IMG/VR virus record: IMGVR_UViG_2541047958_000004
Location: 1-6,515 of that record
Source of the DNA: a virus
Lineage: Duplodnaviria; Heunggongvirae; Uroviricota; Caudoviricetes
DNA: 6,515 bases
Reading direction: 5' to 3' (one strand)
The notes under the pieces are model-generated. The model was not told the origin of the DNA. It saw only the letters and a list, made by a program, of their open reading frames with translations, and made no database searches. Positions 1-6,515 of the stretch are shown in pieces. Made by a program: the position numbers and the translations under genes. Within the stretch, counting starts at the first letter, position 1. Each line of letters opens with the position of its first letter.

Positions 1-582
1 TTACCCTATAGGTGCTACTGGCCATTCAATATCCGGTGCAGTTGATGTATCAACACGGTTCAGCAACACCCGATACTTTTTCCAGGCTTCCAGCAACGAC
101 GCCTCTTCTTCCGTTGCGATCTCCAGATCTACAGCATCCTGAAGCGGCGCTATATGCTCACTGGCTACCTGCATCAGGCTGTTTTTTGTTTCTTCCGCCT
201 CCCGGATCCGGAACAGTTTTTCTGCTTCCGTATCCTTCACCCAGACTGTACCGTTCCACTTCTGAAACTCCCCTTCCGGGGATAACCAGGTGACATTTTC
301 CGGTAATGAGCCGAGTTCAGAAATAAATAACGCGTCGCCGGAAGCCACGTCATAGACCGTTTTACCACGATGGTCTTCAACGAGATGCCACGATGCCTCA
401 TCACTGTTGAAAACAGCCACGAAGCCTGCCGGAATATCTGGCGGTGCAATATCGGTACTGTTTGCAGGCAGACCTGTATGAGGCGGAATATATGCGTCAC
501 CTTCACCAATAAATTCATTAGTTCCGGCCAGCAGGTTATAAATTTTTATGGTCCGTGCTTGTTCACTCATTCTGAATGCCAT
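1..582 (-). CDS. tfa: Tail fibre assembly protein (lambda Tfa-like chaperone), complete, 193 aa; stop codon at 1..3 (TAA on minus strand)
   Basis: Seen: ATG at 582 (rc of 580..582), GAGG Shine-Dalgarno 8 nt upstream (rc of 591..596), and the ATG overlaps the stf stop as TAATG. The translation (MAFRMSEQ...[31 protein letters not shown]...[22 protein letters not shown]) matches phage lambda Tfa / E. coli TfaE-type proteins almost end to end, as recalled from memory. No search was run. Confidence 0.9.
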
Positions 583-2474
583 TATGCGAGCCTCACAATA
601 TAGTTAAATGCGATGTTTTTGACGGTGTTTTCCGCGTTACCAGCAGCGTTAACGGTGATGGTGTGTCCATGTGAGCCAATCGCAACCGAGTGCGTATGCG
701 CACCAATACCTACAGTATGTGCATGTGCGCCAGAACTTGCTGCAGTACCAGACAGCGAGTGGGTATGAGCACCTGCTGACTGTGTCTGAATACGTTGATA
801 ATACGATCTACTGGAAGAAGTCCCCGGGCTTACTTGATACTGTGAATCCTTGACATAAGTGAACCCACCGCCATCATAAAATGCTAACGCAGAACCGCCG
901 CCTCCTGGCCAACGAATACCATTACCATGAGTATGAGCACCGGCAGACCCCGTAGAGCCACTCAGACTGTGCGTATGCGCCCCGGTGTTATTCGTGGATT
1001 TAGTGCCGTAATCAAACGACGATGTGGTTTTCGTCCCCAAATCCGTACTGGATGCGCTGGCGCTGTGGGTGTGCGATTTAATGCCGTCCTGTTCCTGAGA
1101 CAATACGGCCCGACCACTGGCAGGTTTGCCCTTAATCGTCCAGCCACGCATATCAGGGATCACGCCTGACGGATAAGCCGCTGCAAGTTTCGGGTATGCA
1201 GATTTGTCAAAAGTCTGCCCCTGCATCAGGGCATAGCCAGACGGAACGGTATCCGATGGCCACGGGATTGGTGCGCCGACTGGGTAGCTTTCTGGTGGAA
1301 GATTTTTCGAGGTATAAACTTCTGCCCAGTCTTCCTCAAAACCATAGCCATCTCTTGAGGAACGGTAGAACAGACCTCCATTTCTGTAATGCGCCTTCAT
1401 CTGCAGGGTCCGGCAACTTCCGACTCCGGTATAGAAGTTAACCAGAATATAGCTGTCGCCAGAGCGGGTGACATTGTAAGCGCCTGATTCGGCATTCCAG
1501 GGAACGCCACCATCCGCATCGGCATATGTATCAGTTGCCCTTCTGGCAAAAGCAGCCACATGCGCAGCGGTTAAAGTAATATCTTTGGAACCATCAAACT
1601 CAACACCAGAAACCAGTCTTGGCGTTTGCAGCTTTGTTGCTGTTAATGCATTACCGTTCAGACTTGCGGACAGTTTGGTTCCAATAATCAGTTCGCCGGT
1701 TGCGTTATCAATAGCAAACGGTCTTAATGTATTCCAGCCACCATAAACATCACCTTGATTGGTAAGCAGCAGGTAAGTTTTAGCGCCATCATTACGCCAT
1801 AATGCACCATACTCCCCACCTATCATTCGAATCTGATTACCACCACGCGCTACAATTTCGTCTGTGGCAAAAAGTTTTTTGCACGACAAGTTATCGTTAA
1901 CGATTAACGAATGAGACTCATAAAAACCACGCCCACTCTTAAAATCAAGGATAACGTCCGCCGCGATACATTCAGTCGCCGGATTTGTTGCCCCAAACTT
2001 ATAGGTCGTATCATTAACAACGAGATCAGCACCAGGTGCGGATATTGACAGGCCATCTTCGATAAACGCAAAAACAGGGAAAGCAGCGCCATCAACATAG
2101 AACACAGAGCGCAAATCATCGCCCTTATTACTCATCATTATTGAGTGGATGGCTCGTTCATTGTTTTGATATTGCCAGAACATGCCATAAGCATAACGCC
2201 CCCTGTCAGTCCAGCCACCAGGCATAACAAATCCGTTAAACTCGCAGTTATTCATCGGATCGCCTGCGGTTCGCGTTGCCGTGGTGATAATGACCCTTGA
2301 TGCCAGTTCGCTTACTGAGCCAGCAGAACGCATAACAACAACAGGGTAATATTTTCCAGATGTTGCACCTGCAGGAGCATTAACCCGCACATAACGCATA
2401 CCGCGCTTATCAGCAAAGTCTGTTTTACTGACCGCGTTAATGTTGTTCAGGAAGTGTCCCTTAAGGCAAAACAA
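582..2474 (-). CDS. stf: Side tail fibre protein (Stf-like), mosaic; start uncertain (TTG at 2474 is the longest ORF, first ATG at 2399); possibly a 5'-truncated copy of a longer stf
   Basis: Seen: 630-codon ORF ending in TAA at 582..584. The C-terminal ~235 aa (from ...GAPIPWPSD onward; ...[32 protein letters not shown]...[30 protein letters not shown]) matches the lambda Stf C-terminal region from memory, including repeated GAHTHS/GAHAHT His motifs. There is no Shine-Dalgarno before either candidate start, and the frame stays open 27 codons upstream of the first ATG. Confidence 0.8.
585..1290 (-). other. Lambda-Stf-like C-terminal receptor-binding/tip region of the tail fibre, with repeated HxH (GxHxH) motifs
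   Basis: Seen: at least seven H-x-H motifs in the last ~200 aa (SHTHS, GAHTHS, GAHTHG, GAHTHS, GAHAHT, GAHTHS, SHGHT). Established knowledge: HxH repeats in T4 gp37-type fibre tips coordinate metal ions, and the lambda Stf tip together with Tfa determines receptor use. Boundaries are approximate. Confidence 0.7.
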
Positions 2475-2493
2475 ATTCTATGCGTTCAGTCAT

Positions 2494-3504
2494 TCATGCT
2501 TTCCACTTCAGGACACCCGAATTTCTCGCGTGCATTAAAAAACGAATCAGCAACAACAGCTGGCTGCCGTGTTTTTCTTCAAAATCTTTTACCCCGGCGT
2601 GCAGTTCGTTATGACATTTACGGCACAGCGGAATAACAAACAAATCATCAGCCTTTGTTCCCATCCCTCCCAGTCCATGACCAATGATGTGATGCGGATC
2701 ATCTGCCTGATTACCGCACGTCATGCATTTCTGCGTTTTTACCCAGCGCGTGTATACAGGCATCTCTTCCCGTTGTGGTTTCTGGCGCTGGAGATACTGA
2801 GCCGGTGACTCCGGATCAACAGCAATGCTGACCACCGTCTTTTCCTGTGGCGGGTTTTGCTGGTGGGCGTGAGGCAGCGGCGCAAGATTTTTTGTGCGCT
2901 GCTTCAGTATGCTGGTGGCGGTCTGCTCTCCCGGTACGATGTCGCTTTCACGGTACATTGAGCGGATTTTTTCCGCACGCAACCCCAGCGAACGACGTAA
3001 TACCGCTTCCGGTAGCACGTCCGCCACCTGATTGCGGACCGCCCACCAGGATAATTCAGCCAAAGATAATTCACGCTCCTGCGTACCGCTTATTGCGTGA
3101 CCGATGACGTCAATCATCCATGCTGACAGGTTTTGATGAGCAAGCTGCCCGAGTGATTCGGATGTCTGGTCACGCAACTGGTTGTCGCAGTGCCAGCACA
3201 ACACCATTGCGCCGGTACCATAACGGTGAATGACAGTTTCGCTGTGATGATAATCGCCGTGTGGCCACTGGCAGGATTTAATATGGCGCAACAGCCAGTC
3301 AGACAATGCACCAGCACCACCAGCAGCACGAATCACCCGTGCGTTACTGAAAAACGGCAGCAATGTTTTGTCTTCCACCAGCGGCTGGCGAACGGCAGGA
3401 ACGACCCCTGACGGCAGATTACGCATGCTTTTCGGTTCCGGCTCCACCAATACCCGGGTATTGTGGAATACTGGCATGGATTCACGGCCCGGCTTAACGA
3501 TCAC
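2494..3504 (-). CDS. DUF968-like prophage protein with two Cys/His clusters (HNH-like C-terminal motif); 336 aa from GTG at 3504, alternative ATG start at 3477
   Basis: Seen: long ORF ending in TGA at 2494..2496. C-terminal motif CMTCGNQADDPHHIIGHG...LCRKCHNELH (CxxC...HH...CxxCH) and N-terminal cluster CQWPHGDYHH...CWHCDNQ. From memory it resembles E. coli prophage DUF968 proteins (YdfU-type); not verified. Neither candidate start has a clear Shine-Dalgarno. Confidence 0.7.
   Translation of the reverse strand: MIVKPGRESMPVFHNTRVLVEPEPKSMRNLPSGVVPAVRQPLVEDKTLLPFFSNARVIRAAGGAGALSDWLLRHIKSCQWPHGDYHHSETVIHRYGTGAMVLCWHCDNQLRDQTSESLGQLAHQNLSAWMIDVIGHAISGTQERELSLAELSWWAVRNQVADVLPEAVLRRSLGLRAEKIRSMYRESDIVPGEQTATSILKQRTKNLAPLPHAHQQNPPQEKTVVSIAVDPESPAQYLQRQKPQREEMPVYTRWVKTQKCMTCGNQADDPHHIIGHGLGGMGTKADDLFVIPLCRKCHNELHAGVKDFEEKHGSQLLLLIRFLMHARNSGVLKWKA
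2599..2727 (-). other. HNH-like / zinc-finger-like motif region within the DUF968-like protein (aa ~260-302)
   Basis: Seen: CxxC (C260, C263), HH (271-272), CxxC-H (C294, C297, H298), H302. The spacing is reminiscent of HNH/His-Me finger nucleases; calling it that is inference. Confidence 0.45.
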
Positions 3505-3603
3505 CAGCCCGAGTTCCGGTATCCGGCGTTAATTGTTAACTGGTTAACGTCACCTGGAGGCACCAGGCACCGCATCACAAAACTCATTGTTGAGGGCGCG
3601 ATA
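3505..3603. promoter_or_regulatory. Divergent intergenic region between the DUF968 start and the first plus-strand small ORF; candidate promoter/operator region
   Basis: Seen: tandem palindromic hexamers GTTAAC-TG-GTTAAC (3535..3548) and an adjacent CACC-rich segment with short inverted repeat CCTGG-aggca-CCAGG (3553..3567). No sigma70 -35/-10 pair of good quality could be assigned by eye on either strand. Confidence 0.3.
3592..3596 (+). promoter_or_regulatory. Shine-Dalgarno (GAGGG) for the 62-aa small ORF
   Basis: GAGGG lies 7 nt upstream of ATG 3604. Confidence 0.5.
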
Positions 3604-3792
3604 ATGAAAACGTTATTACCAAACGTTAATACGTCTGAAGGTTGTTTTGAAATTGGTGTCACTATCAGTAATCCTGTATTTACTGAAGATGCCATTAACA
3701 AAAGAAAACACGAACGGGAGTTATTAAATAAAGTATGCATTGTTTCAATGCTGGCCCGTTTACGTCTGATGCCAAAAGGATGTGCACAATGA
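3604..3792 (+). CDS. Small hypothetical protein, 62 aa (MKTLLPNVNTSEGCFEIGV...), first gene of the recE-proximal operon
   Basis: Seen: ATG at 3604 with GAGGG Shine-Dalgarno; stop TGA 3790..3792 overlaps the next ORF's ATG (ATGA). The longer 109-aa form starting at 3463 would overlap the divergent DUF968 start and lacks an RBS, so the internal ATG is preferred. Its position corresponds to the small genes upstream of recE in Rac-type early-left operons (inference). Confidence 0.5.
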   Translation: MKTLLPNVNTSEGCFEIGVTISNPVFTEDAINKRKHERELLNKVCIVSMLARLRLMPKGCAQ

Positions 3793-3980
3793 ATCCAGTA
3801 TTTGCACTTATTCTGACGGTTTTTCTTGTTTCCGGAGAGCCAGTTGATATTGCAGTCAGTGTTCACAGAACAAAGCAGGAATGTATGGCAGCAGCAACCG
3901 AACAGAAAATTCCAGGCAACTGTTATCCGGTCGATAAAGTTATTCACCAGGATAATAACGAAATCCCGGCAGGATTTTAA
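3789..3980 (+). CDS. Small hypothetical protein, 63 aa, with a hydrophobic N-terminus (MNPVFALILTVFLVSG...) and two Cys; possible membrane or secreted small protein
   Basis: Seen: ATG at 3789 overlapping the upstream stop (ATGA), AAGGA Shine-Dalgarno at 3776..3780 with 8-nt spacing, and ~16 hydrophobic residues at the N-terminus. The ORF-track start at 3735 has no RBS. Confidence 0.55.
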   Translation: MNPVFALILTVFLVSGEPVDIAVSVHRTKQECMAAATEQKIPGNCYPVDKVIHQDNNEIPAGF

Positions 3981-4059
3981 AACAGCACCGTAATAAATAT
4001 CCAGTTTCATTCTTATATGTCAGCAATGGCAGAGATTTGTTCACCCTTAAATCTGTGAT

Positions 4060-4064
4060 GAGGT
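4060..4064 (+). promoter_or_regulatory. Shine-Dalgarno (GAGGT) for the RecE-like gene
   Basis: GAGGT lies 9 nt upstream of ATG 4074. Confidence 0.5.
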
Positions 4065-4073
4065 TTACCAATA

Positions 4074-6515
4074 ATGAGCACTGATAAAGAAGAATTTGCA
4101 CTATATTGCGAAGCAAAAAATGACAAAGTAAGAAAACGCCTGGGAATTAAAGGTGGTTTTTACTGGACTACAGCAAAAAAATTATCTGTTGCAATCTCCC
4201 GCTGCATTACCGCAATGGATGACAACGATTATGATGAAGACGACTTTAAAAAACCCGTCCGCGTCAATTTGCCCGTTGTTGACGACCTTCCGCCAGAAGG
4301 CGTGTTTGATACTGAATTCTGCAACCGCTATGAAAAAGGCGGGAAAGATGGCATCACAATGACATTTATCGGCCCTTCCCCCTCTGTTCAGGACAAACCA
4401 GCCAGCACTGACAATACCAACATCAACGGCGAAGACATGACTGAGATTGAGGAGAGCATGCTTCTGCCTGTCTCCGGTCAGGAACTGCCCATTCGTTGGC
4501 TTGCTCAACACGGCAGCGAAAAACCAGTAACGCACGTTTCACGCGACGAACTCCAGGCATTACACATTGCACGGGCTGAAGAACTACCGGCTGTTACTGC
4601 CCTGGCTATTTCGCATAAAACCAGTCTGCTCGACTCGCTGGAGATTCGCGACCTCCACAAACTGGTTCGTGACACTGACAAAGTTTTCCCTAATCCTGGT
4701 AATTCAGACCTGGGACTAATAACTGCTTTTTTCGAAGCATACCTGGACGCTGACTACACTGATCGGGGTCTGCTGACAAAAGAGTGGATGAAAGGAAATC
4801 GTGTTTCACGCATCACCCGCACGGCTTCCGGTGCTAATGCTGGCGGTGGGAACAAAACCGATCGCAATCCGAATTTAGTACACACCCTCGACACACTGGA
4901 TGTGGAGATTGCAGCAGCCACACTTCCGATGGATTTTAATATTTATGAAATTCCGGGCAGCGTTTATCGTCGCGCAAAAGAAGTAGTCCTGAACAAAGAA
5001 AGTCCGTTCAAAGAATGGTCCGCAGCACTTCGTGCAACCCCGGGTATTCTGGACTATTCCCGCGCCGCTATTTTTGCACTTATCCGAAGCGCACACCCTG
5101 AATTTTATCACTACCCGGGACGCCTTCAGGGGTATATCAACGCCTATTTGACGGAAACTGATCACGAGAACCCCAGCAAGGAAACTCTCACAGCTGCCCG
5201 GCATACGCCGGAAAAAGATATCCTGGAAGAAATTAACCGCGAGGTGGTTACTGAGCGTGAAACAGAAGAAGAAAAACCACAACCATCTGACGCAATGGCA
5301 GGTGAACAGGCAACAACTGAAACAATGGAACCGGATACAACTGAACATGGCCAGAACGCGCAGTCGCTGGATGCTCAGTCGCAGGTGAGTTCCGCTAACC
5401 AAGTAAAAGTCACCGCTGACGAAGTAAACAAAATTATGCAGGCAGCCAATATCAGCCAGCCTGACGCCGATAAGTTACTTGCTGTATCGCGTGGTGAATT
5501 TGTTGAGGGGATTAGCGACCCTAATGATCCGAAATGGGTCAAGGGGATCCAGACTCGCGATTCTGTGAACCAGAACCAGCATGAATCGGAACGGAACGAC
5601 CAAAAAGCGGAACAAAACAGCCCAAATGCGTTACAAAACGAGCCAGAAACGAAACAATCCGAACCAGTAGCGCAACAGGAACCGGAAAAAGTCTGCACCG
5701 CCTGCGGTCAGAGCGGTGGCGGCAACTGCCCTGATTGTGGCGCGGTGATGGGCGACGCAACATACCAGGAAACATTCGATGAAGAGAATCAGGTTGAAGT
5801 TCAGGAAAATGATCCGGAGGAAATGGAAGGCGCTGAACATCCACACAAGGAGAACCCTGGCGGCAATCAGCATCACGCCAGCGATAATAAAACTGGCGAG
5901 ACGGCAGATCACTCAATTAAGGTGAACGGTCATCACGAAATCACATCCACCAGCAGGACGTGTGACCATCTAATGATCGACCTTGAAACCATGGGAAAAA
6001 ATCCTGATGCCCCGATCATCTCAATAGGTGCAATATTTTTCGATCCGCAAACCGGAGATATGGGACCGGAATTTAGTAAGACTATCGATCTGGAAACTGC
6101 TGGCGGAGTCATTGATCGGGACACCATTAAATGGTGGCTTAAGCAATCACGCGAAGCGCAATCTGCCATTATGACCGATGAAATCCCGTTAGATGATGCA
6201 CTGTTACAATTGCGGGAATTTATCGACGAAAACTCCGGTGAATTTTTTGTTCAGGTCTGGGGAAATGGAGCCAACTTCGACAACACGATTTTGCGCCGTT
6301 CATACGAACGGCAGGGGATCCCCTGCCCGTGGCGTTACTACAACGATCGCGATGTACGCACAATCGTTGAGCTGGGGAAAGCCATAGACTTCGATGCCAG
6401 AACGGCTATTCCATTCGAAGGTGAGCGCCATAATGCACTTGATGACGCTCGTTACCAGGCAAAATACGTTTCAGCTATCTGGCAAAAACTGATCCCGAGT
6501 CAGGCTGATTTTTAA
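4074..6515 (+). CDS. recE: RecE-family (exodeoxyribonuclease VIII-like) protein, 813 aa, with the canonical C-terminal nuclease replaced by a DEDDh 3'-5' exonuclease domain; stop TAA at 6513..6515
   Basis: Seen: 2.4-kb ORF with an RBS. The N-terminal ~620 aa contain long stretches I recognise from E. coli Rac RecE (e.g. [134 protein letters not shown]; [46 protein letters not shown]). The last ~185 aa instead carry DEDDh motifs. The symbol is given for the N-terminal family only. Confidence 0.85.
5694..5738 (+). other. Putative zinc ribbon (CxxC-x7-CxxC) within the RecE-like protein
   Basis: Seen: [17 protein letters not shown]. From memory the same motif is present in E. coli RecE. Confidence 0.5.
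5961..6512 (+). other. DEDDh (DnaQ-like) 3'-5' exonuclease domain at the C-terminus of the RecE-like protein
   Basis: Seen: motif I MIDLET (D636, E638), motif [11 protein letters not shown], motif III H-x4-D (HNALDD) with a following Tyr. This pattern defines DEDDh exonucleases (RNase T, Exo I, DnaQ epsilon, oligoribonuclease). The domain begins at an internal Met (ATG 5973). Confidence 0.7.

Follow-up and report, generated by a model that had tools for sequence, protein, structure and literature searches.

In the window analyzed here, that is, the whole stretch of 6,515 nucleotides (nt) of the tailed-phage record IMGVR_UViG_2541047958_000004 in IMG/VR (positions 1 to 6,515; Caudoviricetes), an open reading frame (ORF) of 630 amino acids (aa) resembling a side-tail-fibre gene (stf) lies on the minus strand, next to the tail-fibre assembly chaperone gene tfa. 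This ORF is almost certainly a truncated remnant (stf') of a longer StfR-type gene in an eroded prophage of the Qin type that was reshaped by two deletions, and its 5' end is a microhomology junction located at a recurrent TA breakpoint. The truncation by itself is ordinary prophage decay and a routine annotation point. Unexpected, however, was that one exact TA step, the one at which the window's fibre sequence begins, is also the end of 13 other, differently joined prophage deletions in E. coli.

The truncation is evident from the DNA on the two sides of the junction. On one side, window positions 2750..2462 are a 100% match to the DUF968-rusA DNA in more than 40 E. coli genomes, and every match ends at 2462; in one of these genomes, the annotation lists the DUF968 gene, then directly a RusA-family resolvase gene, and then a late antiterminator gene. 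On the other side, from 2463 downward, 1,377 records match at 95–99.5%, in the interior of genes whose annotation is that of a full-length 'prophage tail fiber N-terminal domain-containing protein / stfR', with 99.3–99.5% identity to intact stf genes (blastn). One such intact fibre gene encodes 1116 aa and stands in the order J-lom-stf-tfa. With the join marked by a slash, the rusA parent reads ...TTTGTTTTGCCTTA/CCCGCCGACGG (GCCTTA/CCCGCC), the intact fibre parent reads ...GCTGATATACCCGATA/AGGGACGCTTCC (CCCGATA/AGGGAC), and the window reads ...TTTGTTTTGCCTTA/AGGGACACTTCC (GCCTTA/AGGGAC). The overlap of the two parents consists of TA only (2463..2462, 2 nt), and the junction is of the microhomology type (illegitimate recombination). 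The remnant of rusA starts with its ATG at 2493 and is 30 nt long; the junction itself supplies its stop codon, TAA (2463..2461).

The protein comparison gave the same picture. Residues 5–630 of the window ORF align to residues 512–1120 of K-12 StfR (91.9% identity) and to residues 512–1116 of another intact fibre (blastp), so that only the C-terminal 54% of full-length fibres is covered. A preliminary description, made from the sequence alone, had proposed that the gene is the 3' portion of a longer fibre gene that lost its 5' anchor-encoding region by deletion. The abrupt start of the match inside intact genes and the localized breakpoint bear this out, and the likeness to the StfR fibre of Rac mentioned there is real. 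The same description placed stf directly against the DUF968 gene; the 5' truncation implied by this stands, but the direct neighbour is the 10-codon rusA remnant and not DUF968. A 501 nt probe across the junction was searched against E. coli records, among them 5,426 complete E. coli genomes. None of the 2,850 records that it matched spanned the junction, and the rusA'/stf' junction is carried by 0 of the 5,426 complete genomes, as expected for a private deletion. Likewise, no complete E. coli genome covers at least 80% of the window, and none has its arrangement. Look-ups of the exact candidate products (605 and 630 aa for stf', 336 and 327 aa for DUF968') gave no match, either.

Across the junction, the minus strand reads ...GTGGAAAGCATGAATGACTGAACGCATAGAATTTGTTTTGCCTTAAGGGACACTTCCTGAAC.... 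As described before, the stf frame contains a TAG stop at 2480..2478, a TTG at 2474..2472, with which the listed ORF (582..2474) begins, and a first ATG at 2399..2397. The open stretch upstream of this ATG exists as well, but comprises 26 sense codons (2477..2400) rather than the 27 counted earlier. Within this stretch, only 2461..2400 is fibre sequence; 2477..2464 is the start of rusA read in another frame, the shared TA sits between the two parts, and rusA DNA, read out of frame, encodes the four residues MFCL with which the listed ORF opens. Because the protein aligns to StfR 512–1120, and the anchor occupies residues 1–134, the ATG at 2399 encodes an internal Met of the full-length fibre. 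Neither start codon has a recognizable Shine-Dalgarno sequence, again in line with the preliminary description: the best anti-Shine-Dalgarno duplexes in the 20 upstream bases have +0.6 kcal/mol for the ATG and +0.4 kcal/mol for the TTG, and the value for the tfa start is −5.6 kcal/mol. No sigma-70-like promoter was found near the junction, and the one weak match in the region is no more than occurs in shuffled sequences.

The domain content of the 630-aa product completes this evidence. Pfam matches were obtained for Gp34_trimer (1.5e-27), Collar (2.9e-12), Phage_fiber, and gp37_C. The 'prophage tail fibre N-terminal' domain PF08400, which covers residues 1–134 of the intact 1116-aa homologue, has no Pfam match in the product, and the suspected lack of an N-terminal anchor is thus confirmed. 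Downstream of the stump, tfa is intact; J, lom, and all other tail genes are missing from the window, and rusA' stands upstream of stf' instead. Because the N-terminal domain is missing and there is no start codon with a ribosome-binding site, the stump is classified as a truncated remnant and not as a fibre gene. For annotation, this means that the 630-aa 'tail fibre' becomes a 5'-truncated pseudogene remnant, that the same applies to the DUF968 gene, and that a 10-codon rusA remnant lies between them. Several public fragments of this fibre module (P0004, P0006, P0042, and P0073) carry from their source the name 'short-chain fatty acid transporter, partial', which is evidently wrong and has spread through clusters of up to 452 members.

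The arrangement almost certainly arose as follows. A large deletion took rusA from codon 11 onward, the antiterminator gene Q, the genes for lysis, packaging, head, and tail, and also the front 511 codons of the StfR-type fibre gene, and its ends were joined at the shared TA (2463..2462). Left behind were the shaft, the collar, and the receptor-binding part of the fibre, without the tail-attachment domain, the native start, the ribosome-binding site, and the promoter. A second deletion (3519..3521) took the immunity and replication region, fusing a 5'-clipped DUF968 gene to DNA just upstream of dicB.

The breakpoint in stf is shared by many other loci. Loci were collected by the 27–30 nt to the right of the site, which gave 112 stretches from IMG/VR, 66 from metagenomes, and 1 from species-representative genomes; selection by the sequence just right of the site hides endpoints further to the right, but does not create clustering. 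Most of the collected stretches keep intact upstream fibre sequence. The exceptions join exactly ...TA/AGGGAC to Nu1 (lambda nt 697), to the protease gene C, to K (nt 14247), to J (nt 17971), and to an unidentified ORF. In two other complete genomes, the stumps start at the same nucleotide and have different upstream DNA. In one of these, codon 26 of lambda Z is fused in frame, and the locus goes back to an intact prophage of the same chromosomal position; in the other, a DLP12-like prophage, the join lies just past iss/bor. A protein search for in-frame chimeras with the first 302 residues of the stump, followed by comparison of the DNA, revealed six further partners, namely L (nt 13675), ParB/YnaK, a TAGT-family gene, and three more positions in J. 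Four of these six represent different Rac variants (trkG context).

Altogether, 14 different left partners, including that of the window, meet at one stf nucleotide (rusA, Nu1, C, Z, L, K, four J sites, ParB, TAGT, the post-bor region, and one unidentified sequence), and 14 of 14 end in TA. The other fibre endpoints in the same material occur at eight positions with one partner each. Within the first 1.7 kb of the segment, 14 of the 22 distinct junctions fall on a single one of its 34 TA steps (p ~3e-15, even if only TA steps were usable). The same site is present in K-12 stfR (CCCGATAAGGGATG), where its T/A step falls, as calculated from the gene offset, at MG1655 1,430,581-1,430,582. One locus (L188) keeps the left side of the site instead (...CCCGATAA/CCTTATT), and one junction lies 7 nt upstream of it. 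Taken together, the recurrence of the stf breakpoint is well supported.

Two further observations concern the immediate surroundings of the site. The second codon past the breakpoint (window 2455-2457, minus strand; L003 ~4008; L190/L193; codon 514 of K-12 stfR) is polymorphic and is the sole variable position in otherwise near-identical 60 nt; the alleles are CGC (Arg), CAC (His, in the window), and TGC (Cys, in K-12 Rac and several Rac variants). In addition, the TAGT'/stf' fusion of the Rac context occurs in nested forms (P0012, P0038, P0039, and P0080; L193), of which P0012 was checked on the DNA (L193), while the other three were read as protein. P0038 carries an additional deletion that begins right at the old junction (..SGTYV/) and runs to stf ...CAGTA/AGCGAA, which suggests that an old junction can break anew at the same point; for P0039 and P0080, the left end (..LDSG/) is three codons earlier.

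The stf site is not the only hub. Nucleotide 697 of Nu1 (...GAACTGATA/CCGGGG; lambda, L189, nt 696-697) is a second one, with at least nine different right partners. Three of these (stf-1700, stf-313, and Z-8065) were found in the stf-selected loci, and a direct scan for the Nu1 site added A-2489, J-17306, J-17971, and three unidentified partners; all identifiable native partner sites have TA at the join (Nu1-hub loci L042, L076, L077, L103, L194-L198, and L201-L203). In one genome, position Z-8065 forms a left end, in another it forms a right start, and L-13675 and J-17971 recur, too. Among the 27 junctions that were not themselves search targets, 13 centre on a shared TA. No dinucleotide is rarer here than TA (f=0.031, 3.1%), and by chance only about 1.5% of 2-nt microhomologies would be TA. 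The remaining unselected junctions show ordinary microhomology of 0–4 nt. Judged from the side-by-side sequences, matches at −3/−4 beyond the TA are no commoner than expected by chance, which speaks for an overlap of 2 nt at a fixed end or core and not for longer homology. Literature searches turned up no account of an stf breakpoint or hot spot, of hubs in which many partners meet at a single nucleotide, or of a preference for TA.

The only longer motif shared by hubs was GCGCTG-N8-GATA, which is present in the two strongest hubs and not in the others, and a search for hairpins or cruciforms at the hubs revealed no significant structure (z-scores −0.3 to +1.3). When both half-sites of the 19 native sites were pooled, C was found at +2 in 24 of 38 cases (0.32 expected) and G at +4 in 21 of 38 (0.26 expected). 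For 42 TA junction ends read on the retained strand, C occupies position −5 in 23 cases (55%, compared with 0.26; p=8.5e-5) and position −4 in 20 cases (48%, compared with 0.31; p=0.015), and GATA/TATC is frequent at TA breakpoint sites. The flank signal is weak but real.

Several loci contain patchwork remnants, in which pieces of 150–1500 nt follow each other in lambda order with 3–6 junctions in a row (L159 1090-3817; L252 1-3000; L251 1000-3900). Locus L159 has the arrangement Nu1'/L' (172 nt)/J' (434 nt)/stf', and L252 contains six junctions. These patchworks resemble the window's own series of dicB-upstream DNA/DUF968'-rusA'/stf', and they are reminiscent of serial template switching or of repeated deletion. 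In L076 (2680-3140), a 417-nt U/V segment is inverted between Z and stf; one junction of the inversion is TA-centred (AATA/CCGG), and the other shares CCC.

The assignment of stf' as a remnant has to be weighed against a few observations that fit it less well. The frame of the stump is undamaged over 605–630 codons, and its differences from the intact homologue are mostly synonymous (20 synonymous and 4 non-synonymous codon differences in the first 498 codons compared with L003); the stump may therefore still be translated, e.g., from an internal start via read-through transcription. Together with the intact tfa chaperone gene downstream, the undamaged frame could also be taken to mean that nothing is missing from the 605–630-aa ORF and that it represents a naturally short gene for a fibre or a receptor-binding protein, with a start of its own. 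This is extremely unlikely, however, because the DNA match to intact genes of 1116–1132 aa begins abruptly at 2463, within the coding sequence, the 14 nt upstream of it are rusA in another frame, a Shine-Dalgarno sequence is lacking, the window contains no tail genes, and equivalent stumps elsewhere are flagged 'missing N-terminus' by PGAP. Most likely, stf' is a silent, unexpressed remnant, and we infer that a young deletion, or refreshment of the copy by recombination, accounts for its open frame. The suggestion of the preliminary description that the fibre may be non-functional or an orphan fragment is accordingly the probable reading. A different question is whether the shared breakpoint reflects descent from one ancestral truncation, without any hot spot. 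The retained right-hand sequences are indeed 98–99.7% alike. Nevertheless, common descent is a very improbable explanation: the 14 left partners lie in different genes, and each runs from native sequence straight into the same stf nucleotide; at least four prophage contexts are involved (Qin-like, Rac, DLP12-like at argU, and lambda-like at other sites); the derivation of new left partners from one junction would require a new break at the same nucleotide; and L188 retains the left side of the site instead.

With independent recurrence at the stf site as the preferred reading, the mechanism comes into question. It is possible, though the balance is somewhat against it, that a dedicated break-and-join process acting on particular TA steps drives a non-random decay of lambdoid prophages in E. 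coli and repeatedly regenerates the same fibre stump plus tfa in unrelated prophages. Such a process, which might rest on type IA topoisomerase cleavage or on some other nickase or recombinase specific for TA, would delete between a small set of hubs, i.e., stf codon 512, Nu1 nt 697, Z nt 8065, L nt 13675, J nt 17971, and others. The best candidate that can be named for TA cleavage, albeit a weak one, is a type IA topoisomerase (Topo I or III), which might cut the TA step downstream of a C; two such ends might then be joined by mis-religation, or a fork might run into the nick and then prime on the 2-nt TA. In vivo, E. coli Topo I is reported to cut TA dinucleotides that lie 4 nt downstream of a required C, with the motif TCNTTA/T (PMC9352719), and topA point mutants have higher rates of deletions and duplications (PMC6954433). 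The stf site fits on both strands (top CGAT/A, bottom CCTT/A), the rusA site of the window fits (CCTT/A), and C is enriched at −4 and −5 of the 42 ends. On the other hand, the strongest flank signal is at −5, one base off −4, the flanks are GC-rich while the motif of the enzyme is AT-rich, the fit of several hub sites is limited to one strand or absent altogether (K, and the lambda version of J-17971), attention fell on the motif only once the data had been seen, and type IA enzymes need single-stranded DNA, whereas the sites lack significant structure. Overall, the involvement of a topoisomerase therefore appears doubtful. Even less can be said for a site-specific invertase, according to which the stump would be the promoterless variable segment of an invertible cassette of the Pin/Gin type, like stfE in e14, or the product of a deletion by Pin invertase at a quasi-site. 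Pin-like recombinase genes do lie just beyond tfa in many related loci, and invertases reportedly use quasi-sites, as in the work on Cin and cixQ. However, the 26-bp Pin/Gin/Cin crossover site (..AAACC-NN-GGTTT..) was not found at the breakpoint, where nothing similar to the pix site of e14 (CCAAACC-AA-GGTTTGG, recovered as a positive control) is present, and the intact locus has no inverted repeat at the site. Furthermore, the shared dinucleotide is TA and not AA, the partner sites have no half-site similarity, and the rearrangements are deletions in direct orientation. Hence an invertase is hardly credible. Nearly as remote is the idea that the TA junctions are footprints of a lost insertion sequence (IS) of the IS30 or IS630 family that targets TA or duplicates 2 bp and makes adjacent deletions, for which the natural IS30 hot spot in lambda with its central TA (GGCGA-TA-GTGA) and 2-bp duplication might be cited (PMC9333248). 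In our material, 15 IS30 insertion sites gave the target AAAAAGGC-NN-GCCTTTTT with varied central dinucleotides, unlike the GC-flanked TA deletion sites; no IS end adjoins the stf site in ~180 loci, no IS follows ...CCCGATA in IMG/VR, and the N-TA-N tetranucleotides are not CTAG.

As an aside, the IS30 copies in E. coli prophage contigs (L207-L246) sit in the palindromic target TTAAAAAAGGC-NN-GCCTTTTTTAA, and some of them have unlike flanks on their two sides, suggesting recombination between IS30 copies. Three other candidates were rejected. Quinolone-stabilized gyrase cleavage occurs before G with a 4-nt stagger (PMC6379681), which does not fit the 2-nt TA overlap. Self-targeting by CRISPR I-E with an AAG protospacer-adjacent motif at the site can be discarded by reasoning, since this motif and the protospacer are both kept in all junctions. 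Lastly, a pseudo-cos cut was considered, as GGGACGCTTCCT is like cosN at 8 of 12 positions, but at least one further stf base is always kept.

If a specific enzyme is behind the TA junctions, it would provide a molecular handle on how cryptic prophages are whittled down. A dedicated process, if real, would also help to explain the frequent survival of fibre-plus-chaperone modules, a reservoir for recombination with infecting phages, and the long-discussed question of the driving force behind bacterial illegitimate recombination would become testable at defined sites.

The features of the window are compiled in Table 1. The early-region genes in its right part (dicB, the ydfD-like gene, and the exonuclease gene) represent the early-left operon of Qin. 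At the second junction, the homology of the window to intact DUF968 copies ends at 3521, and the annotated start of the coding sequence in L002 lies 28 nt further upstream. Beginning with 3519, the window corresponds to K-12 Qin DNA that lies 85 nt upstream of dicB; the overlap is GTA, and the junction is resolved to 3 nt. A full-length DUF968 gene with its native start was not found in the window: the domain is kept (5.9e-64), while about nine N-terminal codons and the start are lost, and the listed DUF968 ORF begins with a fortuitous GTG at 3504 and ends with the TGA at 2496..2494. The genes dicF, ydfABC, and dicA/dicC and the replication genes are gone at this junction, and dicB is thus severed from the promoter and the repressor of its operon. 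Neither DUF968' nor stf' has a recognizable promoter, and the two blocks diverge from junction 2. A terminator-like hairpin followed by a T-run lies within the 3' part of the DUF968 coding region (2548-2569, minus strand), but such matches are no commoner than in shuffled sequences.

Table 1. Annotated features and deletion junctions of the 6,515-nt window
Feature	Position	Strand	Evidence
tfa, tail-fibre assembly chaperone gene, intact, 193 aa	1..582	-	ORF; Pfam Caudo_TAP 1.8e-44; good Shine-Dalgarno sequence at start
stf', retained 3' 54% of StfR-type side-tail-fibre gene (= StfR residues 512-1120), frame open to stop	582..2461	-	blastn to intact gene L003; blastp to K-12 StfR and L003; domains
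First ATG of the stump, internal Met (~residue 533) of full-length fibre, without Shine-Dalgarno sequence	2397..2399	-	
Deletion junction 1, TA common to rusA (GCCTTA/CCCG) and stf (CCCGATA/AGGGAC); recurrent breakpoint	2462..2463	.	rusA match ends at 2462, stf match starts at 2463
rusA', first 10 codons of RusA-family resolvase gene, ended by junction-made TAA (2463..2461)	2464..2493	-	L002 annotation, DUF968 then RusA; identical up to junction
DUF968 gene fragment, without ~9 codons and native start	2494..3521	-	Pfam DUF968 5.9e-64; L002 homology 3521 to 2462
Deletion junction 2, GTA common to DUF968 5' part and DNA 85 nt upstream of dicB	3519..3521	.	Window compared with L002 and K-12 Qin (L119)
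dicB, cell-division inhibitor	3604..3792	+	Pfam DicB 2.7e-39 on residues 48-109 of ORF 3463..3792; K-12 Qin map
ydfD-like gene (DUF1482)	3789..3980	+	ORF; position matches ydfD in K-12 Qin and L001
Early-region exonuclease gene, ExoVIII N-terminal part and 3'-5' exoribonuclease Rv2179c-like domain	4074..6515	+	ORF, Pfam

The first edge of the window coincides with the tfa stop codon, and the exonuclease frame stays open through its last base. The expected gene order was supplied by K-12 Qin and by a related locus at the Qin site (L001, between ydfJ and rspB), which contains tfa, a fibre gene, DUF968', ydaT', dicC / dicA, ydfABC, dicB, ydfD, exo, xis, and int. The DUF968-rusA' piece is a 1.06-kb island flanked by the two junctions. 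Altogether, the window is a stretch of a heavily eroded lambdoid prophage of the Qin type, in which three surviving blocks are joined by two deletions.

Among characterized fibres, StfR of the Rac prophage (E. coli K-12 b1372, 1120 aa) has the same Gp34_trimer, Collar, and fibre-repeat domains, followed by tfa. In contrast to StfR, stf' lacks residues 1–511, including PF08400 and the long Ala/Ser-rich shaft, has no start codon with a ribosome-binding site, and has no tail genes to attach to. The closest precedent for the stump is nohA/StfQ of K-12 Qin, i.e., of the same chromosomal prophage family, where a fibre stump of 320 aa is likewise deletion-fused to an upstream late gene (nohA, the Nu1 homologue). 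However, Nu1 (...GAATATA) of K-12 Qin continues at a position much deeper inside stf (NITALTDN...), whereas in the window codon 10 of rusA is connected with codon 512 of stf. StfE of e14, located in the Pin-invertible P region, is also a C-terminal fibre segment without its own N-terminus beside tfa; it has a pix crossover site at its boundary and an inverted partner opposite, whereas the stump in the window is bounded by the rusA deletion junction and has no pix-like site.

Deletions at microhomologies and the erosion of prophages are already well known. Short-homology illegitimate recombination in E. coli and lambda has been studied at the hot spots of lambda bio transducing phages, in deletions at arrested forks, and in RecBCD/ligase microhomology end joining. 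We know of no description of TA-centred junctions or of TA hubs with many partners. The junctions described here share with the known cases the microhomology of 0–5 nt, the large size of the deletions, and the occasional multi-junction patchworks. They differ from them in that about half of the unselected junctions (13 of 27) are TA-centred and that a few TA steps serve as hubs for many partners, and the wider point of the comparison is a breakpoint common to many independent deletions at single-nucleotide precision.

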